DNA of 40,830 nt from Gammaproteobacteria bacterium (GCA_051009035.1 JBPCWY010000088.1:1-40830), one strand, 5' to 3'. Counted from the first letter of the stretch, positions 3,948 to 33,635 are shown. The notes: generated from the sequence alone by a model not told the origin. Numbers and translations are program-made.

Positions 3948-4077
3948 TTGCGCCGCGCGATATAAAATGCGGGCGGCAATTTCTTGCAGGTTATTTTTAC
4001 CAACAAAAAATAAATGTAAAAAATTGCCGTTCCCGCGAAAACGGAAAATTGGATAACGCCGCATGTTTTGCAGGGAG

Positions 4078-4117
4078 ATTCCCGCTTTCGCGAAAATGGC
4101 GGGAGAATAACGGGAAT
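4078..4117. repeat. Degenerate copy of the ATTCC-N8-GGAAT palindromic repeat family
   Basis: attcccgctttcgcg...gcgggagaataacgggaat lies between convergent icd and mltA and is preceded by gggag, as in other copies (agag). Confidence 0.4.
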
Positions 4118-4222
4118 GGCAAACATGACATGAGCGGCGGGGAGCGGGAATTTTTACAACGCCGTATATTTTGCAAAAGGTTTTTGCTTTTACGGGAATA
4201 GAAATGCGCGAAAGAAATATTA

Positions 4223-5371
4223 TTAACGCGGGAGCAGTATAAAAAGTTTGCCGCGCGTTTTCATTAATCCCGCCATTTTTTCGGCGCGCGCGCCGCGGCC
4301 CCAAAAGAAATCGGCGCGGACATTTCCGGCAATCGCGCCGCCGGTATCCTGCGCAAACATTAACCGCCGCAACGGCGTTTTGCCGTCGTCCGGCATTACC
4401 GTGGAAAGCCAAACCGGCGCGCCCGGCGGAACCGCTTTGGTATCCGCCGCCAAACTTCTTTCCGGCGTAAGCGGCACGCCCAAAGAACCGCGGGGCCCGA
4501 AATTAATATCGTCGCGGCGGGTGAAAAAAACATAACTCGGGTTTTCGTTTAATAAATTTCCGGCGCGATGCGGATTGTCGCGCAGCCATTTTTTCAGCGA
4601 AAACAAATTAACATCTTCGCGCCGCATTTCGCCGCGCTCAATTAAAATGCGCCCGATAGAACGGTAAGGATGCCCGTTTTGGTCTTGGTAGCCGACTCCG
4701 ACAATGCGCCCGTCCCGCAACCGCACCAGCCCCGAACCTTGAATGTGCAAAAAGAAAAGCGCGGCTTTGTCGTCCACCCACAACAATTCTTCGCCGGCGA
4801 GCGGCGCGTTTGCGCCGTCAATTTCGGCGCGGGAATAATACGGCGCGACCGCGCCGTTGTTGATTCGCCCGCGCACCCGTTTATTTTGCAGCTCCGGATA
4901 CAGCGCGCCCAATTCTACGCGCAACAAGCCGGCGGGGCGCGCATATACCGGATAACGAAATGTTTCCGACCGCGCGACCGCGCCTTCCAACAACGGCTCG
5001 TAATAGCCGGTAATTAATCCTTCATCGTTTCCGTTTTCGTTTAATAATTGAACCGGCGAAAAATGATTCTCAAAAAAACGCCGCGCGGCAATATCCGAAA
5101 TATTTTCCGGCAACAATTTCGCCGCCGCACAAGGCGCATCCCACGCGCCGCGCAGTTTTTCGCAACTGCGCAAAAATACCGGCAACGTTTTCGCGTGCGC
5201 GTCTTCGGTCCACCCCGGCAATTCTTCCCACGACATTGCGCGGCGGGATGTTTCCGGCGCGACAAAAGCGCATCCGGAAATTAATCCAAAAATTAGCATG
5301 CACAAAAAAATTTGAACCGCGCAAGCCGCGCAATCGCCGCGCGAAATTTTACCCGCCAATATTTTACGCAT
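4223..5371 (-). CDS. mltA: Membrane-bound lytic murein transglycosylase A (lipoprotein)
   Basis: Signal peptide with lipobox (LISGC). Contains MltA domain motifs (ITGYYEP, YRSIGRILI) and a 3D domain (FAQDTGGAIAGNVRADFFWG). The ATG at 5371 overlaps the upstream stop as TAATG. The 492-aa track ORF is an Arg-rich N-terminal extension. Confidence 0.85.
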   Translation of the reverse strand: MRKILAGKISRGDCAACAVQIFLCMLIFGLISGCAFVAPETSRRAMSWEELPGWTEDAHAKTLPVFLRSCEKLRGAWDAPCAAAKLLPENISDIAARRFFENHFSPVQLLNENGNDEGLITGYYEPLLEGAVARSETFRYPVYARPAGLLRVELGALYPELQNKRVRGRINNGAVAPYYSRAEIDGANAPLAGEELLWVDDKAALFFLHIQGSGLVRLRDGRIVGVGYQDQNGHPYRSIGRILIERGEMRREDVNLFSLKKWLRDNPHRAGNLLNENPSYVFFTRRDDINFGPRGSLGVPLTPERSLAADTKAVPPGAPVWLSTVMPDDGKTPLRRLMFAQDTGGAIAGNVRADFFWGRGARAEKMAGLMKTRGKLFILLPR

Positions 5372-6303
5372 TACGCGCGCCCGTAAATCCGGCGGCATGC
5401 CGCTTCCGCTTCCGCGGCGGTGATATGATAACCTTGTCCGCCTTGGCGCGCGGCTTTGACGCCCGCAATGACGGAAGCGAATTGCAATATTTGCGGCCAC
5501 TTCCATTCGCGCTGCAAGCCGTAAATTAATCCCGCGCGGTAGGCGTCCCCGCAGCCGGTCGTGTCCGCCGTTTTGCCGAATGTTGCCGCCGTTGTGCGGT
5601 GCGTTTGTCCGCCGGTATGCGCTTCGGAACCGGCGTCTCCGCGGGTGATAATCATCGTTTGTTTTTCGCCCGTCCGCGCATCGCCCGCGGTTTTTTGGCA
5701 AAATTCGTATTCATCTTGGTTAAAAACGGCGATTTGGCACAGCGCGAGAATCTCCCGCAACTCTTCGCCCGCAAGCAATCCGATTGCTTGTCCGGGGTCA
5801 AAAATAAACGGCGTTTTTGCCGCCGCCAATTCGCGCCCAAAATGCAGCATCGCTTCGCGCCCGTTGGGGCTGACAATCGCCATCGCGGGCGGGGCGGACA
5901 AATCGCCGATGCTTTGCCGGTGCGCTTCGGCGCTTGCGCCGGGGTGGAATAAAATAATTTGGCTTTCGTCGTCGTCGCTTGCCAAAAACGCCTGCGCGGT
6001 ATACGCGCCGCCGATTGTTTTCACATGCAAATCGCTAATGCCGCAACGGCGCAGATGGTCCCGGTAGGGGGAAAAATCTTCGCCCACCGCCGCCATCAAC
6101 AGCGGCGAACCGCCCAGCAAGTTTAATCCGAAAGCGATATTCCCGGCGCAACCGCCAAACGCCCGCCGCATGGACGGGACGGTAAACGCCGCGCTAAATC
6201 CGGCGGCTTGCGGGTCGGGCAGGCGGGCGGCAAAACGCCCGCCGATGCGCATGATGTAATCAAACGCCAGCGCGCCGATAATTAAAACTTCGTCCGTTGC
6301 CAT
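5371..6303 (-). CDS. PfkB-family carbohydrate/nucleoside kinase (adenosine-kinase-like)
   Basis: FDYIM...GGCAGNIAFGLNLLGG...FHPGA...TRGDAGS...DTTGCGDAYRAGLIYGL (PfkB signature 2, DTxGAGD-like). Confidence 0.8.
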   Translation of the reverse strand: MATDEVLIIGALAFDYIMRIGGRFAARLPDPQAAGFSAAFTVPSMRRAFGGCAGNIAFGLNLLGGSPLLMAAVGEDFSPYRDHLRRCGISDLHVKTIGGAYTAQAFLASDDDESQIILFHPGASAEAHRQSIGDLSAPPAMAIVSPNGREAMLHFGRELAAAKTPFIFDPGQAIGLLAGEELREILALCQIAVFNQDEYEFCQKTAGDARTGEKQTMIITRGDAGSEAHTGGQTHRTTAATFGKTADTTGCGDAYRAGLIYGLQREWKWPQILQFASVIAGVKAARQGGQGYHITAAEAEAACRRIYGRA

Positions 6304-6356
6304 GTTTTCCGCGCTATTTTAACGCAACGGGCGTTTTTTTCGGCGCGCGCCGCGCG

Positions 6357-6365
6357 TGCTACAAT
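6357..6365 (+). promoter_or_regulatory. Extended -10 TGCTACAAT upstream of gor; predicts a leaderless mRNA
   Basis: tgctacaat at 6357-6365. The ATG at 6372 is 6 nt after the hexamer. No SD sequence is possible. Confidence 0.45.
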
Positions 6366-6371
6366 AGAAAT

Positions 6372-7715
6372 ATGAAATGCGATTTGCTGGTTATCGGAGG
6401 CGGCAGCGGCGGCGTGCGCGCGGCGCGTTTGGCGGCGGCATCCGGCGCGCGCGTGGTGCTTGCCGAAAAAAGCGCGCTGGGCGGGACTTGCGTCAATGTC
6501 GGCTGCGTGCCGAAAAAATTATTCGTCTTCGCGTCTTCATTCGGCGAAGAAACGGAATGCGCCGCCGCATTTGGCTGGCAAAACGCCGCGCCGGGCGATT
6601 TTAATTGGGATATTTTGCGCGAAAACAAAGACCGCGAAATCCTCCGCCTAAACGCAGTATACGCCGAATTGTTAAACAAAGCGGGCGTGGAAGTCGTCCC
6701 CAAAGCGGCGCGGCTTTTGGGCGGACAGCGCGCGGACATCGGCGGCGCGGAAGTGGAAGCCGAAAAAATTCTAATCGCTTGCGGCGCAGTTCCGGCGCGC
6801 CCGCCGTTGCCGGGGGCGGAGCATGGCGTGTTGTCGGACGACATGTTTTATTTGCCGAAACTCCCCCGCCGCGCGGCGGTTATCGGCGGCGGCTATATCG
6901 CGTTGGAGTTCGCCGGAATCTTATCCGGGCTGGGCGTGGAAACGACAATCTGCCACCGCGCCGAATTACCGTTGCGCGGATTTGACGACGATTTGCGCGC
7001 CCACCTCGCCGCCGAAACCGCCAAACGCGGAATCGCCGTCCGCGCCGGAATCGCCCCCGCCGCGATTGAAAATAAAAACGGCGCGCGGCGCGTAGTTTTT
7101 GCGGACGGAAGCGCGCTGGAAGCGGATTTGGTCCTGCTCGCGACCGGGCGCAAACCGGCGTTTTCCGGACTCGGTTTAGAAGCCGCGGAAATTGTCCCAA
7201 ACGCCCGCGGCTTTTTAGAAACGGACGAAGATTACCAAATCAAAAACCGCCCCGGCATTTACGCCATCGGCGATGTCCTGCAAACCCCGGCGTTGACGCC
7301 GGTCGCAACCGCCGAAGCCGGCGTGTTTATCGCGCGCGTTTTCGGCGGCGACAAAACGGCGGCGGTAGATTACGCGCATTTACCCACCGCCGTATTTTCG
7401 CGCCCGCAACTCGCTACCGCCGGCATGAGCGAATCGGCGGCGGCGGTGGCGGGCATTAAAACAAAAATATACAAAAGCGAATTTCGCGCGATGAAACGCG
7501 GCTTTGCCGGAAAAGAATGGCAAACATTAATGAAACTTGTCGTGCGCGAAGAAGACGGGCGCGTTTTGGGCGCGCACCTAATCGGCGAAGACGCGGGCGA
7601 AATCATCCAAGGATTCGCCGTCGCCCTGCGCTGCGGCGCAAGCAAAAACGATTTTGATTCCACCGTCGGCGTCCACCCGACCACCGCCGAAGAATTTGTA
7701 ACAATGCGCGGCTAA
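6372..7715 (+). CDS. gor: Glutathione-disulfide reductase (class I pyridine nucleotide-disulfide oxidoreductase)
   Basis: VIGGGSGG (FAD), redox-active GGTCVNVGCVPKK, C-terminal HPTTAEEFVTMR interface motif. Confidence 0.88.
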   Translation: MKCDLLVIGGGSGGVRAARLAAASGARVVLAEKSALGGTCVNVGCVPKKLFVFASSFGEETECAAAFGWQNAAPGDFNWDILRENKDREILRLNAVYAELLNKAGVEVVPKAARLLGGQRADIGGAEVEAEKILIACGAVPARPPLPGAEHGVLSDDMFYLPKLPRRAAVIGGGYIALEFAGILSGLGVETTICHRAELPLRGFDDDLRAHLAAETAKRGIAVRAGIAPAAIENKNGARRVVFADGSALEADLVLLATGRKPAFSGLGLEAAEIVPNARGFLETDEDYQIKNRPGIYAIGDVLQTPALTPVATAEAGVFIARVFGGDKTAAVDYAHLPTAVFSRPQLATAGMSESAAAVAGIKTKIYKSEFRAMKRGFAGKEWQTLMKLVVREEDGRVLGAHLIGEDAGEIIQGFAVALRCGASKNDFDSTVGVHPTTAEEFVTMRG

Positions 7716-7793: not shown

Positions 7794-8435
7794 ATGATGG
7801 GCGAAACATTCATCGTTGCGCTGGCGACTTTTTTTGCCACCGTCGGGCCTTTTGATGTGGCGGCGGTATACGCCGCATTGGGCGCGCGTCTTAGCGCGGC
7901 GGAAAAACGGCGCATGGCGGCGCGCGGCGTTTTATTGGCGGGCGCGATTTTATTCGTCTTCGCCTTTGCCGGAGAATCGCTATTGCGCGCGCTGGGAATT
8001 TCGCTGCCCGCCTTTCGCGCCGCGGGCGGCGTGTTGCTTTTACTCATCGGCATAGACATGGTTTTCGCGCGGGAATCGGGCGGCGCATCCACGACAAAAG
8101 AAGAAAACATGGACGCGGCAACGCGCGGCGACATTTCGGTTTTTCCGCTGGCGCTCCCGCTCATCGCCGGTCCCGGCACGATGGGCGCGGTATTGCTTTT
8201 AACCACCGGCGCGGAAGGCGAATGGGCGGCGCAGGCGGAGGTATTATTCGCGCTGTTTTTAATTTTGCTGTTAACTTGGTCGTCCATGCTGGTCGCCAAC
8301 CGCCTGCAAAAACTTCTCGGCATAACCGGAATGCATGTAATCGGCCGCGTCTTCGGCGTTTTACTAACCGCGCTGGCAATGCAATTCATCTTTGACGGCA
8401 TAGCCGAAAGCGGAATCCTAACCGCGGCGGGTTGA
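7794..8435 (+). CDS. MarC-family (UPF0056/NAAT) integral membrane protein
   Basis: Six hydrophobic segments. FPLALPLIAGPGTMGAVLLL is the typical MarC motif. Confidence 0.8.
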   Translation: MMGETFIVALATFFATVGPFDVAAVYAALGARLSAAEKRRMAARGVLLAGAILFVFAFAGESLLRALGISLPAFRAAGGVLLLLIGIDMVFARESGGASTTKEENMDAATRGDISVFPLALPLIAGPGTMGAVLLLTTGAEGEWAAQAEVLFALFLILLLTWSSMLVANRLQKLLGITGMHVIGRVFGVLLTALAMQFIFDGIAESGILTAAG

Positions 8436-8441
8436 TTTTTT

Positions 8442-8450
8442 TGGTATACT
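8442..8450 (+). promoter_or_regulatory. Extended -10 TGGTATACT upstream of the orphan membrane-protein gene
   Basis: tggtatact at 8442-8450. RBS aaaggaa lies upstream of the ATG at 8487. This is the same TGGTATA(T/C)T form as upstream of the GmrSD gene. Confidence 0.4.
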
Positions 8451-8486
8451 AACGGCTAACGGCGCGTTTGCGCGGAAAGGAACAAT

Positions 8487-9020
8487 ATGGAAAAAACAAA
8501 AGATTACCAAGAAAAATCCGAATATTTGCGCGAAGCAATTCGGCTGGTTGAGTTGCGGCTGGAGCAGCAGCAAAAATCTTCCGATGAAAATCAGCGAAAA
8601 GCGGCGTTATTAATTACATTTTGCGTTGCCGTAATCGGTTATTTATACGCCGAACAACCGGACGAGTCCGGAGTATATTTGCCGCTCGCGCTTTGGTGGA
8701 CGGTCAAAGTTATATTGGCGGTTATTTTGGGGGCGGCTGTTTTTTACGGTCTGCAAGTCGTGGATATTAAAAAATGGGGAGTTTCAGGAGCCGACCCCGC
8801 TTATGTAGACTCGCGTTTTGGGTGGGATTTTAATCAAATGGCGGAAGAACTGTTGGATGGCTATAAAGAATGTTTTGATATAAATAAGGGAAATTTAGAA
8901 AAGAAAGTAAAAAAATTAAAAATAGCCAGAAATTTGGGCATACTTGGAATAACACTTTCTCTCCTATGGATTGTTATGGAAAGAATTTCTTATATTGTTT
9001 GTTTTTGGGCGGACAAATAA
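8487..9020 (+). CDS. Orphan 177-aa membrane protein: N-terminal charged helix followed by 3 predicted TM segments
   Basis: The ORF is AT-rich relative to its neighbours, with good RBS context. TM candidates are AALLITFCVAVIGYLY, WWTVKVILAVILGAAVFYGLQVV and LGILGITLSLLWIVMERISYIVCFW. I cannot assign a family from sequence alone. Confidence 0.65.
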   Translation: MEKTKDYQEKSEYLREAIRLVELRLEQQQKSSDENQRKAALLITFCVAVIGYLYAEQPDESGVYLPLALWWTVKVILAVILGAAVFYGLQVVDIKKWGVSGADPAYVDSRFGWDFNQMAEELLDGYKECFDINKGNLEKKVKKLKIARNLGILGITLSLLWIVMERISYIVCFWADK

Positions 9021-9041
9021 TTTAAACCGGCAGTAAACGGA

Positions 9042-9200
9042 TTAAAATCCGCGGTTTTCGCACGAATCGCGTTTAGGAGGATTCGCGGTATTTTCTTCTA
9101 TGGAATCCAAAATCGGCCGGTGACGGACCGCATCGGATTCCGGCGGTTGCGATGCCTCCGGCGGTTGGGCGGGCTTGGGCTTTGTCTCTTCTTCGGGCAT
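9042..9200 (-). CDS. Micro-ORF A, 52 aa, acidic and Pro-rich: MPEEETKPKPAQPPEASQPPESDAVRHRPILDSIEENTANPPKRDSCENRGF
   Basis: Hand-translated; below the 60-aa track cutoff. The ATG is 3 nt after the stop of micro-ORF B. It is a paralogue of ORF B, sharing PPEA.QPP..DA, LDS.EE, DS.E.RGF-stop, with synonymous codon differences (GAT TCG vs GAC TCT; CAA vs CAG; TCC vs TCA). Confidence 0.5.
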   Translation of the reverse strand: MPEEETKPKPAQPPEASQPPESDAVRHRPILDSIEENTANPPKRDSCENRGF

Positions 9201-9203
9201 TTT

Positions 9204-9368
9204 TTAAAATCCGCGGTCTTCGTAAGAGTCAAGTTCGGGGCGCTTCAACGCTTTTTCTTCCGTTGAATCCAAAGCCGGCTGGTTGCTATAGAGCGCATCG
9301 GGTTGCGGCGGCTGCACTGCCTCCGGCGGCGGAGCGGATTCGGCGGGTTTTTTGTATTCTTCCGTCAT
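9204..9368 (-). CDS. Micro-ORF B, 54 aa, acidic and Pro-rich: MTEEYKKPAESAPPPEAVQPPQPDALYSNQPALDSTEEKALKRPELDSYEDRGF
   Basis: Hand-translated. The ATG at 9368 is preceded by GAGGA (9380-9376) with 7-nt spacing and by a near-consensus promoter. Confidence 0.55.
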   Translation of the reverse strand: MTEEYKKPAESAPPPEAVQPPQPDALYSNQPALDSTEEKALKRPELDSYEDRGF

Positions 9369-9399
9369 TTTTGTTTCCTCGTAAAAAACAATCCCCTAC

Positions 9400-9429
9400 A
9401 TCATACCACACCGCCCCCCGCCTTGTCAA
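9400..9429 (-). promoter_or_regulatory. Near-consensus sigma70 promoter TTGACA-18 nt-TATGAT driving the micro-ORF pair
   Basis: Minus strand: TTGACA at 9429-9424 (overlaps the TGA stop of the Type IIG gene), 18-nt spacer, TATGAT at 9405-9400. Confidence 0.6.
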
Positions 9430-12400
9430 GCCCACGGCGGGGGCATTTTTTCGGTTATTGCCGCTGTTTGGGCGAGGGCGGTTATTAGGTGGGCGTAGGC
9501 GCGCTGGTCTTTGTATTTTAGGGTTCGGGTTTTGCGGTCTTTTAGCCATTTTTCGGCGGGGCGGTAGCCGCCTATTGTTAAATTCCATGCCGCTTGGGGG
9601 ACGCCGCTGAAATGGGATTTGGCGTTTATGTTTATTTTTAGCGTTTTGTTGTCCTGCTCCGGTTTGACAAATTCTACAACGCAGGAGTCGCCGTGAAATT
9701 GCACGGCGTTGTCGTCCAGCGATTTTTCTTCCAGCAAATGTAAACGGCGCAATTCGCCGCCGGTTTTTGCCGTCTGCGCGAAATGCGTTTTGTTTTGCGG
9801 CTTGGGAATGCGCGCGAAATTTATTTTTAAAAACTCCGCGTATTTTTTGCGGTAATACGGGTTATGCAAAACCGCGTAGACATAATCCAAAATTTGCGGC
9901 GGCGTTATGCAGTCCGCCCCGCCGTTTTCGGCGTAAGACATGCCGGCGGCGGCGGCGATTTTTTCGGCAAACTCCGGCGCGATATTTGCGCGCTTTTCGG
10001 TTTTGCCGTGCATCTCTTCGTAAAGATACAGCGGAATGCAATAAGTTTGGTCGCTTGCCGCATGCAGGTCGGCGATGCAGGAAGTTATAAAACCCCGGTC
10101 AAAAATTTCTTTTTCCGGGATTGTCCGGGAAACAAGAAGCGCAAGATTATCGCGCTTAATGAAATGGTCCATTACTTTATTTCTGGACCGCCCCAAGAAA
10201 CCGCCGGAGGTTCCGGTATAGCAAATTCGCCGATTGTCAAAAGGGCGATAACAAATATCAGCGTAAACGAATTTTCGTTTCGCTAAATCATTTTTGGCGG
10301 ATTGAAAATTCCAACCGGAAGAATCTTTTTTGTTGCTGTATTTTTGTTTTAATTGTTCCACGCCGAGAGAAAGAAAATCGTTAACAACCGTTTCCAGCGA
10401 TTTTTGTTCAAAATGCACGGACAATTCATCGCACTTTGTCTGAATGCCGGAGTTATACACGGGAAACAAATCCGTAATTGAAACGCCCTCATCGTAATTT
10501 TCCTGCGCGGAAAAATCTTTCGGCAAAAAGAAATAATACGGCGCATGCGGCGAAAGGGTTTGGAGTTTCATGTTTCCCAAATCCGCGCCCAACAAAAAGT
10601 CAAATTTCGCCTGCTGTTTGCCGTAGCAGTCGACGTAAAAAACTTCCGCATCGGAATCGGAGTCGCCGGTTTTTACCATCACGGTAATTCCCACGCCCAC
10701 GCCGATGCTAAAAACATTTTCGTCTTTTCCGCCGCCCGGCTCGGTTTCGCCGATTTTGCCATGCAAATTAAGAATATAAATTTTATCAAAAGCGCGGAGC
10801 AAATGTTCGCGCATCTGCCGGTGCGTTATGCCGCCGTAAAAAGAATTATTAGTAATAAACGCGACAACGCCGCGCCCGGTTTTTTCCGCCACCAGCCATT
10901 CGGCGTTGCGGATAAATTTAATGTAATCGTCGTCCAGATTAAGTTTGCGTTCGCGCAATCCTTTTTTGTAATCCGCCAGCAACTCGATAATGTGCGCGCC
11001 GCGGTTTTGCGATTTTACATTATAAGGCGGGTTGCCCAGCACGACCATCACGGGCGTTTTGTTTTTAACCTCGTCGGCGGCTTGCGCTTCTTCGTCCAGC
11101 CAGCCGATTCCCATTTGGCCGTGTTCGCCGTAGTCCAGCGCATCGGTTAAGAAAACATTAACGCGTTTTTTTGACCGGCGCAACTTCTCCATAATATCGT
11201 TTCCCAACGCCAGCGCAAATTTGATATGGCAAACGCTGTATGCGCTCATCATATTTTCAAACCCGTATAAACGCGGCAACAATTCTTCCAGCGCGTAATT
11301 TTCCCAACCGCCGCGCGGATTGATTTCCGTTTTAATCGTTTCCAAGATTTTCGCCAAAAACGCGCCGGTGCCGGCGGCGGGGTCCAAAATTTGGACGGTA
11401 TGCAATTCCGCATTCGCATCATGCGGATTTTTGGTTTTTCCCGAGTCCGCGAGTCCGCGCGGCGCGTCCTCAAAAAATTCCCGCAAACAATAATCCGCGG
11501 CGCGGACAATAAAATCCACAACGGGCGGCGGCGTGTAATATACGCCCTGCTTGCGGCGCAATTTTCCGTCGTAGCGGTCCAAAAAAGTTTCGTAAAAATG
11601 CATGAACGGGTCGGCGTCCGCGCGGAGGGCAAAAGCGGCGGCGATGTTTTCCATGCTAACGCCGCGCAAATATGCGGCGGTATTGTCGGCGGCGATGGCT
11701 AAATCTTCGTCCAAATCTTGCTGCATAAACTGGTTGAAAAATTTGCGTAAAAACGGAGTCGTGTGCGGCAACAATTCTCCGGCAACGGCGCGCGAAAATT
11801 CATGCGCGCGGTTTTCTTGGTCGGCTTGCAGGCGCGCGGTAAAAAGCGCATATACGGCGGTTTGCGCGAAAATATCGGCAAACGCGGCGGGCGTTAAACC
11901 CTGCATTAAGTTTTTGCAAAATGCTTCGTATAATTGGATTAAATCGCGGTCGTCTTTTTCCATGGCGGCTTCGGCGCGCCGTTTAATTTCTTTGGCTTTT
12001 TGCGCCAATTCCGCGGCGAGTATTTCGGGGCTTGGCGATTCGTTTGCGCCCGCGCCCGCCGCGGCAAAAACGCGCAAAAACTCCGCCAATTCTTCGGCGC
12101 GCGCGGTTGAAACCGGCGGATGCATTTTGCCCCCGCGGATTTCGTCCGCCAGCCGCGCCGGTTTTTGCGCCCGCCCGTTGTCGTAGCGGCGAAATTCCAA
12201 ATAATCGGTGAGGACGAGATTGGAAAATCCGCGGCGGTAGCGTTGCAGCTGTTCCGATTTTTCTTCGCGGTCTAAATTGGCGCCAATATCTTTTGTTTCC
12301 ACATGCCCGACAAGCGCGCCGCTTTTCCATTGCACCCGAAAATCGGGCGAGCAGGAATCGTTGCGCTCGCCTTCGTTAATTGCCTGCGCGCCGGGGATGA

Positions 12401-12530
12401 CGGCGCATAACAGGTCTTGCAAACAGGCGCGGTAGGCGTGTTCTCGCGCCCGTCCGCTTGCGCGTAATTCGGCGGCTTTTTTGGCGTATTCGCGGACGGC
12501 GCGAATATCATTTTGTATTTTTGTTTTCAT
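9426..12530 (-). CDS. Single-polypeptide Type IIG/IIL restriction-modification enzyme: N-terminal PD-(D/E)xK nuclease, gamma-class N6-adenine methyltransferase, Type-ISP/MmeI-like C-terminal specificity domain
   Basis: N-terminus has SPDFRV...GHVETKD (D...ExK). MTase motif X is GVYYTPPPVVDFIV, motif I is ILDPAAGTGAFL, motif IV is VVLGNPPYN. C-terminus has YRPFDNRRICY and IGGYRPAEKWLKDRKTRTL, typical of MmeI/Type ISP target-recognition modules. No helicase domain. The ATG at 12530 is preferred over the ATG at 12578, whose extension is MGFRFCENRQILGRPT. Confidence 0.8.
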   Translation of the reverse strand: MKTKIQNDIRAVREYAKKAAELRASGRAREHAYRACLQDLLCAVIPGAQAINEGERNDSCSPDFRVQWKSGALVGHVETKDIGANLDREEKSEQLQRYRRGFSNLVLTDYLEFRRYDNGRAQKPARLADEIRGGKMHPPVSTARAEELAEFLRVFAAAGAGANESPSPEILAAELAQKAKEIKRRAEAAMEKDDRDLIQLYEAFCKNLMQGLTPAAFADIFAQTAVYALFTARLQADQENRAHEFSRAVAGELLPHTTPFLRKFFNQFMQQDLDEDLAIAADNTAAYLRGVSMENIAAAFALRADADPFMHFYETFLDRYDGKLRRKQGVYYTPPPVVDFIVRAADYCLREFFEDAPRGLADSGKTKNPHDANAELHTVQILDPAAGTGAFLAKILETIKTEINPRGGWENYALEELLPRLYGFENMMSAYSVCHIKFALALGNDIMEKLRRSKKRVNVFLTDALDYGEHGQMGIGWLDEEAQAADEVKNKTPVMVVLGNPPYNVKSQNRGAHIIELLADYKKGLRERKLNLDDDYIKFIRNAEWLVAEKTGRGVVAFITNNSFYGGITHRQMREHLLRAFDKIYILNLHGKIGETEPGGGKDENVFSIGVGVGITVMVKTGDSDSDAEVFYVDCYGKQQAKFDFLLGADLGNMKLQTLSPHAPYYFFLPKDFSAQENYDEGVSITDLFPVYNSGIQTKCDELSVHFEQKSLETVVNDFLSLGVEQLKQKYSNKKDSSGWNFQSAKNDLAKRKFVYADICYRPFDNRRICYTGTSGGFLGRSRNKVMDHFIKRDNLALLVSRTIPEKEIFDRGFITSCIADLHAASDQTYCIPLYLYEEMHGKTEKRANIAPEFAEKIAAAAGMSYAENGGADCITPPQILDYVYAVLHNPYYRKKYAEFLKINFARIPKPQNKTHFAQTAKTGGELRRLHLLEEKSLDDNAVQFHGDSCVVEFVKPEQDNKTLKININAKSHFSGVPQAAWNLTIGGYRPAEKWLKDRKTRTLKYKDQRAYAHLITALAQTAAITEKMPPPWA

Positions 12531-12555
12531 TGTTGGGCGTCCAAGTATTTGTCTA

Positions 12556-12573
12556 TTTTCGCAAAAGCGAAAA
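12556..12573. promoter_or_regulatory. Perfect 7-bp-stem palindrome in the leader of the Type IIG gene
   Basis: ttttcgc-aaaa-gcgaaaa at 12556-12573, 26 nt upstream of the ATG at 12530. Confidence 0.3.
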
Positions 12574-12602
12574 CCCATTTTATACTACAAACCCGTAAAA
12601 AG

Positions 12603-12622
12603 ATTCCCGCTTTTGCGGGAAT
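12603..12622. repeat. 20-bp palindromic repeat ATTCCC-N8-GGGAAT (dRS3-like)
   Basis: attcccgcttttgcgggaat. Confidence 0.8.
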
Positions 12623-12671
12623 GGCGAAAGGGGGAATATTTATCTTTTGCGGATTTTTGGAATGCGAAGAG

Positions 12672-12691
12672 ATTCCTGCCTTCGCAGGAAT
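12672..12691. repeat. 20-bp palindromic repeat ATTCCT-N8-AGGAAT (same family)
   Basis: attcctgccttcgcaggaat, preceded by agag as in other copies. Together with 12603-12622 it brackets a 49-bp block. Confidence 0.8.
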
Positions 12692-12733
12692 GACGGGTTG
12701 GGCAGGAATGGACGGGTTGGGCAGGAATGACGG
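12684..12733 (+). repeat. Tandem 18/19-nt direct repeat, about 2.7 units, seeded from the right arm of the palindrome
   Basis: gcaggaatgacgggttgg / gcaggaatggacgggttgg / gcaggaatgacgg. Confidence 0.85.
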
Positions 12734-12793
12734 AGAGGATGGAAATGGGGTAGCGGCTTGCAGTTAATGCCAAAATGCCGGCTTTTATTCTTT

Positions 12794-13276
12794 TTATTTC
12801 GCCCAGATTCCGCGGCGGGCTTTTTTGGCGCGTTTTTCGGCGGCGGCTAATTTGGCGGGGGTTAAATGAGGCGCGCAGTTTTGTGAAAATCTTTTGTAGT
12901 GTTTGGCGCTTCCCAGTTCCACCATTTTTTCGTTTGCCGAAACGGCGTTGCCGCGCGCATGCATGATTACGACTTTGCGTTTGTATTTGTCTATATCCAT
13001 TACGCGGGCGGAAATTTTGCCGCGCCCCAGCAACCGCGCCAGCATTTTTGTCGTCCGTTCGTATAACGGGTGGTTGTATTCCGGCGCTTGGATTCCGCAT
13101 AGGCGGAATTTGTTGCGCCCGTAGTTTACCGAGTCGCCGTCTACGACGCGAAATTTGGAAGAAGACGCGTTGAGCGTATAAACTTTTTCCGCCGCGTTGC
13201 CCGCCAACATTGGTGCGGCAATTAAAACGGCGCATGCCGCAAGCCGCGCGTAAAATGTTCGCCGCGCCGTTTTCAT
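12794..13276 (-). CDS. Secreted staphylococcal-nuclease-like thermonuclease (SNase fold)
   Basis: Signal peptide MKTARRTFYARLAACAVLIAAPMLAG. Contains VVDGDS...FRLCGIQAPE, DKYKRKV and AKKARRGIW, typical of the SNase family. The ATG is 1 nt after the aceB stop (TAAAATG). Confidence 0.85.
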   Translation of the reverse strand: MKTARRTFYARLAACAVLIAAPMLAGNAAEKVYTLNASSSKFRVVDGDSVNYGRNKFRLCGIQAPEYNHPLYERTTKMLARLLGRGKISARVMDIDKYKRKVVIMHARGNAVSANEKMVELGSAKHYKRFSQNCAPHLTPAKLAAAEKRAKKARRGIWAK

Positions 13277-13277
13277 T

Positions 13278-14840
13278 TTACAACAACGGATAGGCGGCGA
13301 GCGTTAGAAAGCCGGGCATTTCCGTAGCGGTCGCCATGGATTCTAAAATGTCGGCGGCGGCGGACAAGTGTTCGCTTTCGCCGCTTTTTTCCATTTCGTT
13401 TTTGGCGGCTTGCAACCGGCTGGCAAACAAGGACGCGCCGATTTCGCGCCCGTCCGACAACTTCGCCGAATAGCGCATCCATTGCCATAATTGCGCGCGC
13501 GAGATTTCGGCGGTCGCCGCGTCTTCCATCATATTAAAAATCGGCACCGCGCCCGCGCCGCCCAGCCACGCCGAGATGTAGCGCAACGCGACTTGGATGT
13601 TGTTGTCAAATCCGGCGAGGGATATTTCGCCTTCCGGCGCGGTCAAAAAATCTTCGGCGGCGCGTTTGCCGGGGGGGATGATGTGTTTTTGGTGCGCGTT
13701 TGGCATCGCTTCGTCAAACGCCCCGGCGGCGACGGGAATTAATCCGGGATGCGCGACCCAAGTGCCGTCGTGCCCGTCTCCGGCTTCGCGTTTTTTGTCT
13801 TCCAAAACTTTCGCCATCGCGGCGCGGTTGGCGTTTTCGTCGTCGCGAATCGGAATGAACGCCGACATGCCGCCCATCGCGTGCGCGCCGCGCCGGTGGC
13901 AGACGGAAATTAATTCCAGCGAATAGGCGCGCATAAACGGGCTCGCCATCGTAACTTCGGCGCGTTGCGGCAGGACATGCGCGGCGTGCCGGTTTAAGGT
14001 TTTGATGTAGGAAAAAATGTAATCCCACCGCCCGCAATTCAACCCGACAAGCCGCCCGCGCATGGCATGCAAAATTTCATGCATCTGAAAAACGGCGGGC
14101 AGGGTTTCCACCAGCAAAGTCGCCTTGGCGCAGTTTGGCGGCAGGGCGAGTTCTTTTTCGGCGAAATCCATAATGTCGTTCCACAGCGCGGCTTCGCGCC
14201 AGTGTTCGGTTTTCGGCAAATAAAAATAAGGACCGCGGTTTTTGTCATGCAGTATTTTTGCGCAATGAAAAAAGAACAGGGCAAAATCGGCGAGCGCGCC
14301 GGAAAGCGGGCGCCCTTTCCACAAAATATTTTTTTCCGGCAAATGCCACCCGCGCGGGCGGACGATTAAACGGCATTCGCCGTCCGGATTTAACGCGTAA
14401 GTTTTGCCGCGCGCCGCGTCTTCAAATGTGCAATCCCCGCGCGCGGCGTCAAACAGCGCTTGTTGTCCGCGCGCGATGTTTTCCCAAACGGGCGACAGGG
14501 AATCTTCCAAATCCGCCATGAAAACTTTGGCGGGGGAGTTGAGCGCTTGGATGATTTTTTTGCGCTCGGCGGGGGCGGTGATTTCCACGCGCCGGTCCAA
14601 CAGCCCGGCGGGCGGCTCGGCGACTTGCCATTCGCTTGCGCGGATTTCTTTTGTTTCGCCGTGAAAACCGGGCGGCGCGCCTTCGTCAAACCGCCGCTGC
14701 GCTTCGTTGCGCGCGTCCAGCAGGGTTTCGCGGCGGGACGAAAAGCGCGCGGCGATTTTTTCCAGAAACGATTCGGCTTCCGGCGTAAAAATATCCGGAC
14801 ACCATTCGCCGAATTTACCGCGGTTTTTAATTTCCAACAT
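13278..14840 (-). CDS. aceB: Malate synthase A
   Basis: 520 aa. Contains LLDRRVEITAP, KVFMADLEDS, LNCGRWDYIFSYIK and GHDGTWVAHPGLI. The ATG at 14840 is preceded by GAGGA with 6-nt spacing. Confidence 0.95.
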   Translation of the reverse strand: MLEIKNRGKFGEWCPDIFTPEAESFLEKIAARFSSRRETLLDARNEAQRRFDEGAPPGFHGETKEIRASEWQVAEPPAGLLDRRVEITAPAERKKIIQALNSPAKVFMADLEDSLSPVWENIARGQQALFDAARGDCTFEDAARGKTYALNPDGECRLIVRPRGWHLPEKNILWKGRPLSGALADFALFFFHCAKILHDKNRGPYFYLPKTEHWREAALWNDIMDFAEKELALPPNCAKATLLVETLPAVFQMHEILHAMRGRLVGLNCGRWDYIFSYIKTLNRHAAHVLPQRAEVTMASPFMRAYSLELISVCHRRGAHAMGGMSAFIPIRDDENANRAAMAKVLEDKKREAGDGHDGTWVAHPGLIPVAAGAFDEAMPNAHQKHIIPPGKRAAEDFLTAPEGEISLAGFDNNIQVALRYISAWLGGAGAVPIFNMMEDAATAEISRAQLWQWMRYSAKLSDGREIGASLFASRLQAAKNEMEKSGESEHLSAAADILESMATATEMPGFLTLAAYPLL

Positions 14841-15123
14841 GTTATATCCTCGCAAAAAAAACAGAAAAAAACAGAAGCGAATTTTACGCCATGCGCCGCC
14901 CGTTTGCCAAACCCGCCGCGCGTAATTTTACCAACAAAACGGCGGCGGCAAACGCCCAAAACGGAAAATTGCCTGCACAAAATTTCCGCCGCAATTTTAT
15001 TCTACCGCGCGGGAATAAAAAATGCGCCCGCAATGTTTACCGCAAAAAATATAAACCGCCGCATGCAATTTTTTGCCGCGCAATTTGCCGCGGCGGAGTT
15101 TGCAAAAAACGCCGCGTAAAAAA

Positions 15124-25125: not shown

Positions 25126-25261
25126 CTCCATTCCTGCGAAGGCAGGAATCTTTTTGTCGGCGACGGCTTATTCCTTCGTTTAATATAATGGAAACAGCGG
25201 AAGTTTGGCAAATTCATGTCCCGCAAACGGCAAAGAGATTCCTGCCTTCGCAGGAATGGAG
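25126..25261. mobile_element. NIME/MITE-like composite element, copy A: 84-bp core flanked by perfect 26-bp terminal inverted repeats that contain the 20-bp palindrome
   Basis: The left end ctccattcctgcgaaggcaggaatct (25126-25151) is the exact reverse complement of the right end agattcctgccttcgcaggaatggag (25236-25261). Confidence 0.8.
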
Positions 25262-33501: not shown

Positions 33502-33635
33502 CCATTCCCGCGCAGGCGGGAATCTTTTTGCGGTTTGCGGGGTATGAATCCGCCCGACATTTGCCGTTTCTACTATATTAAACAAAGGAATTGCCCGCTA
33601 TCGGCAAAGAGATTCCTGCTTTCGCAGGAATGGAG
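33502..33635. mobile_element. NIME/MITE-like composite element, copy B (inverted relative to copy A)
   Basis: The left end is ccattcccgcgcaggcgggaatct and the right end is agattcctgctttcgcaggaatggag. The core aligns by eye, with most positions matching, to the reverse complement of the copy A core (tttgcggtttgcggggtatgaat...ctatattaaacaaaggaat). Confidence 0.8.

Follow-up and report, generated by a model that had tools for sequence, protein, structure and literature searches.

We analyzed a 40,830-nucleotide (nt) stretch of DNA from a Gammaproteobacteria bacterium, hereafter the window, in which an AT-richer region lies between a marC-family gene and aceB. Within this region, positions 8443 to 12555 form a strain-variable islet with two separate units, namely a Type IIG restriction-modification (R-M) gene and a membrane-protein gene paired with two micro-protein genes. 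We hold this anatomy, and the membrane-protein/micro-protein pair as a functional unit, with high confidence. The best reading of the two units is that they are independent and of defence type, and we are moderately confident that the pair is a peptide-controlled membrane effector located beside a stand-alone Type IIG enzyme.

An earlier note on the same DNA had suggested that the membrane protein, the peptides and the R-M enzyme may form one functional unit. For the membrane protein and the peptides this is borne out by their co-occurrence in every locus examined, whichever of the two partners the search starts from.

The membrane protein and its micro-protein partners

The membrane-protein gene (8487–9020, plus strand) encodes a three-helix inner-membrane protein of 177 amino acids (aa). 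In the AlphaFold2 model (pLDDT 92), helices span residues 2–55, 67–92, 104–111 and 115–176, and the predicted layout is a long N-terminal helix that continues into the first transmembrane (TM) helix, followed by TM2, by a loop with a conserved G..G..P and by a long helix whose end forms TM3. The gene was noted earlier to have an extended -10 promoter, and TGGTATACT is indeed found at 8442–8450 on the plus strand, but no good -35 accompanies it and the site is missing from the promoter scan.

Two micro-protein genes are found on the minus strand. The first (9204–9368) encodes an acidic protein of 54 aa with nine prolines that ends in DSYEDRGF, and the second (9042–9200), located 3 nt downstream, encodes 52 aa ending in DSCENRGF. 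The two are tandem paralogues with 52% identity (E 4e-13), a dN/dS of 0.47 (non-synonymous to synonymous substitution rates) and indels that keep the frame, and no further copy in the genome is matched by the peptide profile. They had been described as two convergent micro open reading frames (micro-ORFs), which is correct in relation to the 177-aa gene but not in relation to each other, and they are co-directional with the R-M gene. The reported gap of 21 nt between the stop of the 177-aa gene and that of the second micro-protein gene was confirmed, as was the lack of a strong terminator, since the scan has no terminator-like site between them. The predicted promoter of the micro-protein genes (9429–9400, minus strand) is a sigma-70 promoter with an extended -10, TTGACA-18-TGnTATGAT, with 11 of 12 matches. 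It is the top site of the 5.1 kb scanned and overlaps the stop codon of the Type IIG gene. A ribosome site, GAGGAAA, is found 7 nt upstream of the ATG of the first gene. We also considered the micro-ORFs as R-M controller proteins and rejected this, because they track the membrane gene and not the R-M genes.

One or two convergent micro-ORFs are present in every family locus read, with stops located -16 to +260 nt from the membrane-gene stop. Besides the window with its two copies, the loci are two paralogous sites in the same-genus genome G001 (L008 and L010), a site with two copies in G003 (L009), two distant gammaproteobacterial metagenome-assembled genomes (MAGs) of 4–5 Mb (L026, L027), two metagenome contigs (L028, L029), one locus in G235 (L032), three groups of distant members of 223–227 aa (L036/37, L038 and L039/40), and L059 and L061. 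The membrane and micro-protein ORFs overlap in L010 and L032, and in two of the three distant groups the micro-ORFs had already been called by gene callers as genes of 53–54 aa. A reverse search from the peptide profile found four further called peptides, each with a convergent family gene of 174–189 aa (hmmsearch E 1e-46 to 5e-55). Two of these four hits re-sample known sites at the pta gene (L060 that of G001, L062 that of G003), leaving about a dozen distinct sites as support for the pairing. In the synteny check proposed in the earlier note, the membrane protein and the peptides stay together, and the Type IIG enzyme does not consistently accompany them.

The micro-proteins are about 25–60 aa long, hydrophilic, cytosolic and proline-rich. 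Their common core, Y-x-[KR]-x-G-[LFW], is C-terminal in most lineages (DSYEDRGF, GAYQKRGL, GAYIRQGW, PIEKGL) and internal in a distant group (e.g., PLEKGW). A clear Shine-Dalgarno site precedes 10 of 14 micro-ORFs, dN/dS between copies is 0.27–0.54, and the summed differences by codon position (61, 49 and 89) show an excess at the third position. Over the last 20 codons, pairs among four lineages have 4–10 synonymous and 1–5 non-synonymous codon differences, and in the 13-residue tail KPVD[YH]GAYQKRGL only the Y/H position varies across four lineages. Judged by these substitution patterns, the micro-ORFs are coding and the core motif is under purifying selection. In G001, the two paralogous modules carry different peptide tails, ...GAYIKHGWWS and ...TNYKGL.

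The 177-aa protein has no Pfam or NCBIfam family, and since a word-index homologue search returned the query itself only, it looked like the orphan described in the earlier note until a full hidden Markov model search was made. This profile search against 1.84 billion representatives retrieved 142 cluster representatives at E<=1e-3, including 53 at E<=1e-10, so the protein is no orphan. The members are mostly 160–230 aa long, and one of 550 aa looks like an over-extended frame. Among 55 aligned members, 28 match the PADLOC model PycTM PDLC02364 (best 1.5e-9), 8 match PDLC02363 and 3 match CBASS 2TM effector models. In the account of the original work given in PMC11224242, PycTM (PADLOC PDLC02364/02363) is the transmembrane effector of Pycsar (Tal et al., 2021). 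When the family was compared by hhalign with an alignment of PycTM-type proteins from the same class, the lead sequence of which (L047) adjoins a true PycC (2.7e-102), the match had a probability of 96.3% (E 1.6e-9) and spanned 154 columns, nearly the full length. At the level of sequence profiles, these comparisons relate the family of the 177-aa protein, remotely but along its full length, to the abortive-infection effector PycTM.

The likeness extends to size and layout. The protein is similar in size to PycTM and the CBASS "2TM" effectors (~160–200 aa), and like PycTM it has a predicted N-terminal cytosolic helix, with a conserved acidic/Lys-Ala motif at its end, leading into a TM hairpin, followed by a helical cytosolic segment and the last TM helix. 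Unlike in Pycsar, there is no adjacent PycC in any family locus, and no cyclase was found beside the window gene or beside any family locus whose neighbours were examined; the neighbours in the window are marC and the micro-ORFs/Type IIG gene. The constant partner also sets the family apart from PycTM, as it is a convergent micro-protein gene. No such micro-ORF was found on the downstream side of five cyclase-less PycTM-type loci (L051, L052, L054, L055 and L057), although L055 has a proline-rich convergent ORF of 90 aa at a distance of 366 nt. Literature searches on PycTM/Pycsar and on SLATT with small or proline-rich proteins turned up no description of the pairing.

Other searches with the family were negative. 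Pfam SLATT (SLATT_1–5) gave no match at E<=0.01 in the 55 members, nor at E<=10 for the window protein, and Pfam was uninformative for family members and longer possible fusions. PHROGs gave marginal matches only, and tblastn against phages and plasmids gave none. As a side observation among the PycTM-type genes, one (L046, in G398:C86, 1946–3459) adjoins a PycC cyclase and a PADLOC "E2" match (5.7e-85), which makes L046 a Pycsar locus that carries a ubiquitin-conjugating-like accessory gene.

The strain-variable block and its Type IIG enzyme

The limits of the islet come from the public cave-metagenome run X1, in which the contig path forks exactly at 8442. Depth is 23.1 upstream of the fork and 18.1 along the path into the island, and a minor contig of 210 nt has a depth of 5.4. 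The minor contig consists of 8413–8442, 41 unrelated letters and then ~12556–12623 at 91% identity (6 mismatches). Its 41-nt filler starts with CCACCGACAATATCGCGCGGCGCATTTAAT, a string that is not found anywhere in the assembled genome. Because 12556–12592 is single-copy in the genome, the minor contig shows the homologous site and not a stray repeat. From this one short contig we infer a minor co-occurring strain without 8443–12555, in which 8442 is joined to ~12556 through 41 nt. The left junction falls at the TG of the extended -10 at 8442–8450, and the right junction coincides with the first position of the perfect palindrome TTTTCGCAAAAGCGAAAA (12556–12573), which is retained in the variant without the block.

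The island had earlier been drawn from 8442 to 13276, which is replaced by the 4.1-kb block 8443–12555 defined by the minor contig of run X1. The membrane-protein gene, the two micro-protein genes and the Type IIG gene make up this block and are gained or lost together in this population, and no variation is seen within the membrane-protein/micro-ORF module across three public runs. The five elements listed earlier between the marC-family gene and aceB are all in place, but they are neither one island nor one machine. Likewise, the composition differs from that of the GC-rich flanks, but unevenly: the guanine-cytosine (GC) content is 40.1% in the 177-aa gene, 50.7% in the Type IIG gene, ~56% in the micro-ORFs and 53.4% in the SNase gene, and the block as a whole has 49.7% compared to 56.5% in the genome.

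The Type IIG gene (9426–12530, minus strand) encodes 1034 aa from an ATG at 12530, and the open frame extends to 12578. The 12530 start is favoured because the longer frame runs past the block boundary at 12556, and it agrees with homologues aligning only from residue 22–30 onwards. The ORF matches the PADLOC model REase_MTase_IIG (4.8e-225) and Pfam Type_ISP_C (7.3e-70), in addition to N6_Mtase, MmeI_Mtase and Eco57I. The frame is uninterrupted and contains PD...ETK, DPAAGTGAF and GNPPYN. Relatives in the PDB are 7lo5, LlaBIII (4xqk) and LlaGI (5ffj), matched over residues ~311–1019, i.e., the methyltransferase and specificity part; for LlaBIII, residues 329–1015 align with 849–1525. By these matches, a single chain combines a predicted nuclease of the PD-ExK type with a gamma-type N6-adenine methyltransferase and a specificity domain like that of Type ISP enzymes. 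The enzyme is intact and conventional, and is predicted to be self-sufficient.

In this organization, the enzyme resembles the Type IIG/IIL MmeI family (7lo5) and Type ISP LlaGI/LlaBIII, which have an N-terminal PD...ExK nuclease, a gamma-class N6-adenine methyltransferase (DPAAGTGAF, NPPY) and a C-terminal Type_ISP_C specificity domain. Unlike the Type ISP enzymes it lacks a helicase-like ATPase, and no helicase domain was matched by Pfam in the ORF. Identity to the solved enzymes is only ~30%. Type IIG paralogues are numerous in the lineage: at least four such frames or fragments are present in the 1.9-Mb genome (contigs C2, C17 and C67, and 9426–12578 of the window), and relatives have up to eight Type IIG matches each, which is unusually rich for such small genomes.

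Proposed control of the membrane protein and competing explanations

The PycTM homology and the constant pairing make a membrane effector restrained by small proteins a reasonable hypothesis. The earlier note had proposed such a membrane-disrupting effector, and this part of its proposal is kept, but the restriction enzyme would be a neighbour within the defence islet and not a component. The membrane protein would be a latent pore-type effector that permeabilises the inner membrane, and in this clade the micro-protein would replace the cyclic-nucleotide input. By its C-terminal motif, the micro-protein might dock on the cytosolic helical bundle (the N-terminal helix and residues ~93–150), so that the effector stays closed. 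As there is no terminator between the genes, strongly promoted transcription of the micro-proteins would also run into the 3' end of the membrane gene, where antisense or collision effects probably lower effector expression. The peptide is short, disordered and presumably labile, and if it were lost, as could happen by phage shut-off of host expression or by proteolysis, the effector would be freed and the cell would stop. The overall logic would be that of abortive infection or of a toxin-antitoxin system.

We propose this specific mechanism, in which the micro-protein holds a latent permeabilising effector closed, antisense acts as a second brake and peptide loss releases the effector, tentatively. 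A more speculative and somewhat unlikely version is a cyclase-free Pycsar/2TM offshoot in which the micro-protein would itself be the ligand that gates the pore, making the pair a minimal two-gene switch that senses host gene expression.

Several observations weigh against a peptide-controlled effector in a defence islet. The PADLOC check suggested in the earlier note, which was expected to call nothing known beyond the R-M enzyme, did call that enzyme, and it matched the window's own 177-aa protein to PycTM at E 0.008 only, which is weak and below any sensible threshold. Foldseek of the AlphaFold2 model against PDB and BFVD found nothing at E<=0.001 and returned generic helical bundles only. 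Beyond the short motif and the proline richness, similarity between the window peptides and those of distant lineages is 19–30%, and the net charge of the micro-proteins is not conserved. The empty-site variant is one contig of 210 nt, with 30 of the 41 middle letters read, and the public runs holding the window sequence are DNA runs only. Furthermore, PycTM-type proteins are frequent without a cyclase (20/401 genomes, and a cyclase in 2 of 12 fetched loci), so that PycTM resemblance alone is no proof of a defence role. Finally, 7 of 12 module loci have housekeeping-looking neighbours, including a BCCT transporter, RecQ/PPDK, a PF04199 cyclase with a short-chain dehydrogenase, and ankyrin proteins.

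The last two observations, together with the toxicity of the membrane protein being a prediction only, are what an alternative function would build on. Many bacterial small proteins modulate membrane proteins, and the pair could be a housekeeping or stress membrane device modulated by small proteins, with the defence neighbours reflecting variable regions in general. We consider this unlikely. Family members are few and patchily distributed (found in 4 of 61 relatives and in 5 of 401 class genomes), the module is present or absent between strains, the membrane gene is AT-rich compared to the host (GC 40% vs. 56.5%), one genome has duplicated modules with distinct peptide tails, and the G007 copy is broken by an insertion sequence (IS). 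Each of these features is typical of accessory conflict genes.

A control by antisense RNA would be closer to the effector reading. Toxin-antitoxin systems of type II have a labile protein antitoxin, and those of type I can have a convergent antisense partner, as in bsrG/SR4 and txpA/RatA. The pair resembles toxin-antitoxin systems in being a two-part module of a potentially harmful membrane protein (as predicted) and a short product from a strong promoter, in having paralogous modules with distinct partner sequences and, as in several type I pairs, in 3' ends that converge or overlap. It differs from type II in that the genes are convergent in all loci and do not form a co-directional operon. 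In a type I-like arrangement, an antisense RNA would target the 3' end of the membrane-protein gene, leaving the peptides secondary or dispensable. The convergent orientation in every locus, the lack of a terminator between the genes in the window and the strong, constitutive-type promoter of the antisense unit would all fit. However, the peptide C-terminus is kept through many synonymous changes, the Shine-Dalgarno sites are retained and indels between copies preserve the frame, so the partner appears to be a conserved translated micro-protein and not a pure RNA. Additionally, a candidate toxin of 177 aa with three helices is far larger than the hydrophobic peptides of <60 aa in type I systems, and an Rfam search of 8200–13400 matched no family. 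We therefore regard antisense control as the main function of the micro-ORFs as quite improbable.

We give a similarly small chance to a single system of membrane protein, peptides and Type IIG enzyme, in which restriction would act first and a peptide-restrained abortive-infection back-up would be wired to it. In the window, the three genes are gained or lost as one block and the micro-ORF promoter overlaps the R-M stop codon. In G007, which belongs to another genus of the same family, an ATGA overlap joins the stop of a frameshifted Type IIG gene to the start of a co-oriented family member (L058, G007:C1:1511500-1522500, 4000–7708). DNA methyltransferase/HNH genes also adjoin the module at two other loci, namely an EcoRI-type methylase with a GmrSD_N/HNH nuclease in G001 (L008) and a methyltransferase-HNH fusion in L038. 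However, the R-M genes beside modules are of unrelated types, and the G007 enzyme is a distant paralogue with 32% identity. The G007 locus is moreover decayed, with the enzyme in frames of 506 and 178 aa and the family member split by an IS5-like transposase gene (313 aa). The Type IIG homologue loci read in relatives (L019–L025) have no membrane gene or small ORFs within ~1.5 kb, and most module loci have no R-M gene, so the earlier suggestion that the R-M enzyme belongs to the same unit is not supported. Type IIG enzymes are also self-sufficient, single-chain enzymes. As 5 of 12 module loci are located beside R-M or reverse transcriptase genes, and given the ATGA overlap in G007, there may be a looser link to defence islands or, at some sites, a functional one to restriction.

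Beyond the module, the cargo at the pta site differs by strain in G001-like and G003-like strains, and consists of the EcoRI-type methylase with GmrSD_N/HNH (L008 4699–6894), a reverse transcriptase (RVT_1) with a 463-aa protein in a related strain at the same site as in G001 (L060 1–2225), or a protein of 645–670 aa (L062 57–1994 and L009 1442–3454) that has no Pfam or PADLOC match. The site looks like a defence hotspot anchored by the module. Upstream of pta, G001 also has a long tandem array (L004/L008, ~2970–3400 of L004) with GGNFVLHF units in one frame and KMQHEI(S/P)A units on the other strand.

Least probable is a genuine Pycsar-type effector that would answer the cyclic nucleotide of a cyclase encoded elsewhere, with the micro-ORFs unrelated to it: it could draw on the PycTM homology and on the sole class III cyclase domain of the genome (PF00211), but this domain is in an 883-aa frame on another contig, no family locus has an adjacent cyclase, and the constant micro-ORFs would be left unexplained.

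The flanking backbone and the meaning of the pair

On its left the islet is flanked by the marC-family gene (7794–8435, plus strand; Pfam), and since marC is absent from G001 and G003, synteny on this side is uninformative. To the right, a repeat-rich spacer (12579–12793) separates the Type IIG frame from a putative secreted SNase-family nuclease (12794–13276, minus strand), which has a hydrophobic N-terminus and matches Pfam SNase PF00565 over residues 56–159 (1.1e-13). The next gene is aceB, encoding malate synthase (13278–14855, minus strand; Pfam).

The signal-peptide SNase had been counted as part of the island. It is present, but a homologue with 53–56% identity directly follows aceB in all three same-genus genomes checked (G001, G002 and G003), and this adjacency makes the SNase backbone, so we rejected it as island cargo. 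In its signal-peptide region (13201–13214), seven clustered positions set the window apart from every contig of the three public runs. The runs have APILTS where the window has APMLAG, and 4 of 6 affected codons are changed at the third position only. The runs may thus carry another allele, or the MAG consensus may contain an artefact here.

The dRS3-like palindromes and tandem repeats that had also been assigned to the island are present as well, at 12603–12748, with ATTCCY-N8-RGGAAT palindromes at 12603–12622 and 12672–12691 and an 18/19-nt tandem repeat at 12684–12748. They are, however, members of a genome-wide family and thus backbone: there are 277 such palindromes in the 1.9-Mb genome, 6 in the window where 0 are expected, and ~160 blastn hits in the genome for segment 12660–12700. 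A scar specific to the island was therefore rejected as an explanation of the repeat block. Paired palindromes 69–108 nt apart are found in the window at 12603–12691, 25130–25257 and 33504–33631.

The ATTCCC-N8-GGGAAT palindromes have what we take to be the form of neisserial dRS3 and Neisseria intergenic mosaic elements (NIME). The likeness lies in 20-nt palindromes that are often paired ~70–110 nt apart and are very abundant. Neisserial minimal mobile elements are variable cassettes, often of R-M genes, between conserved genes, and the islet is similar in having a palindrome pair at the edge of a strain-variable cassette without an integrase. Unlike in neisserial genomes, DNA uptake sequences are not enriched, as the six neisserial forms tested in the genome have 0–2 copies each. 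This uncultured cave MAG is a possible case of NIME-like repeat arrays outside Neisseria proper.

The stand-alone Type IIG enzyme, the conserved secreted nuclease and the genome-wide repeats are ordinary. To our knowledge, PycTM/2TM-type membrane effectors have been described solely as the output of nucleotide-signalling defence systems. A clade of PycTM-like effectors without a signalling enzyme, and always with a tiny, apparently translated gene, would point to a different way of controlling such pores, and it would strengthen the view that unannotated micro-proteins play a working role in bacterial conflict systems. With a length of less than 1 kb and a clear motif to mutate, the module makes this idea directly testable.

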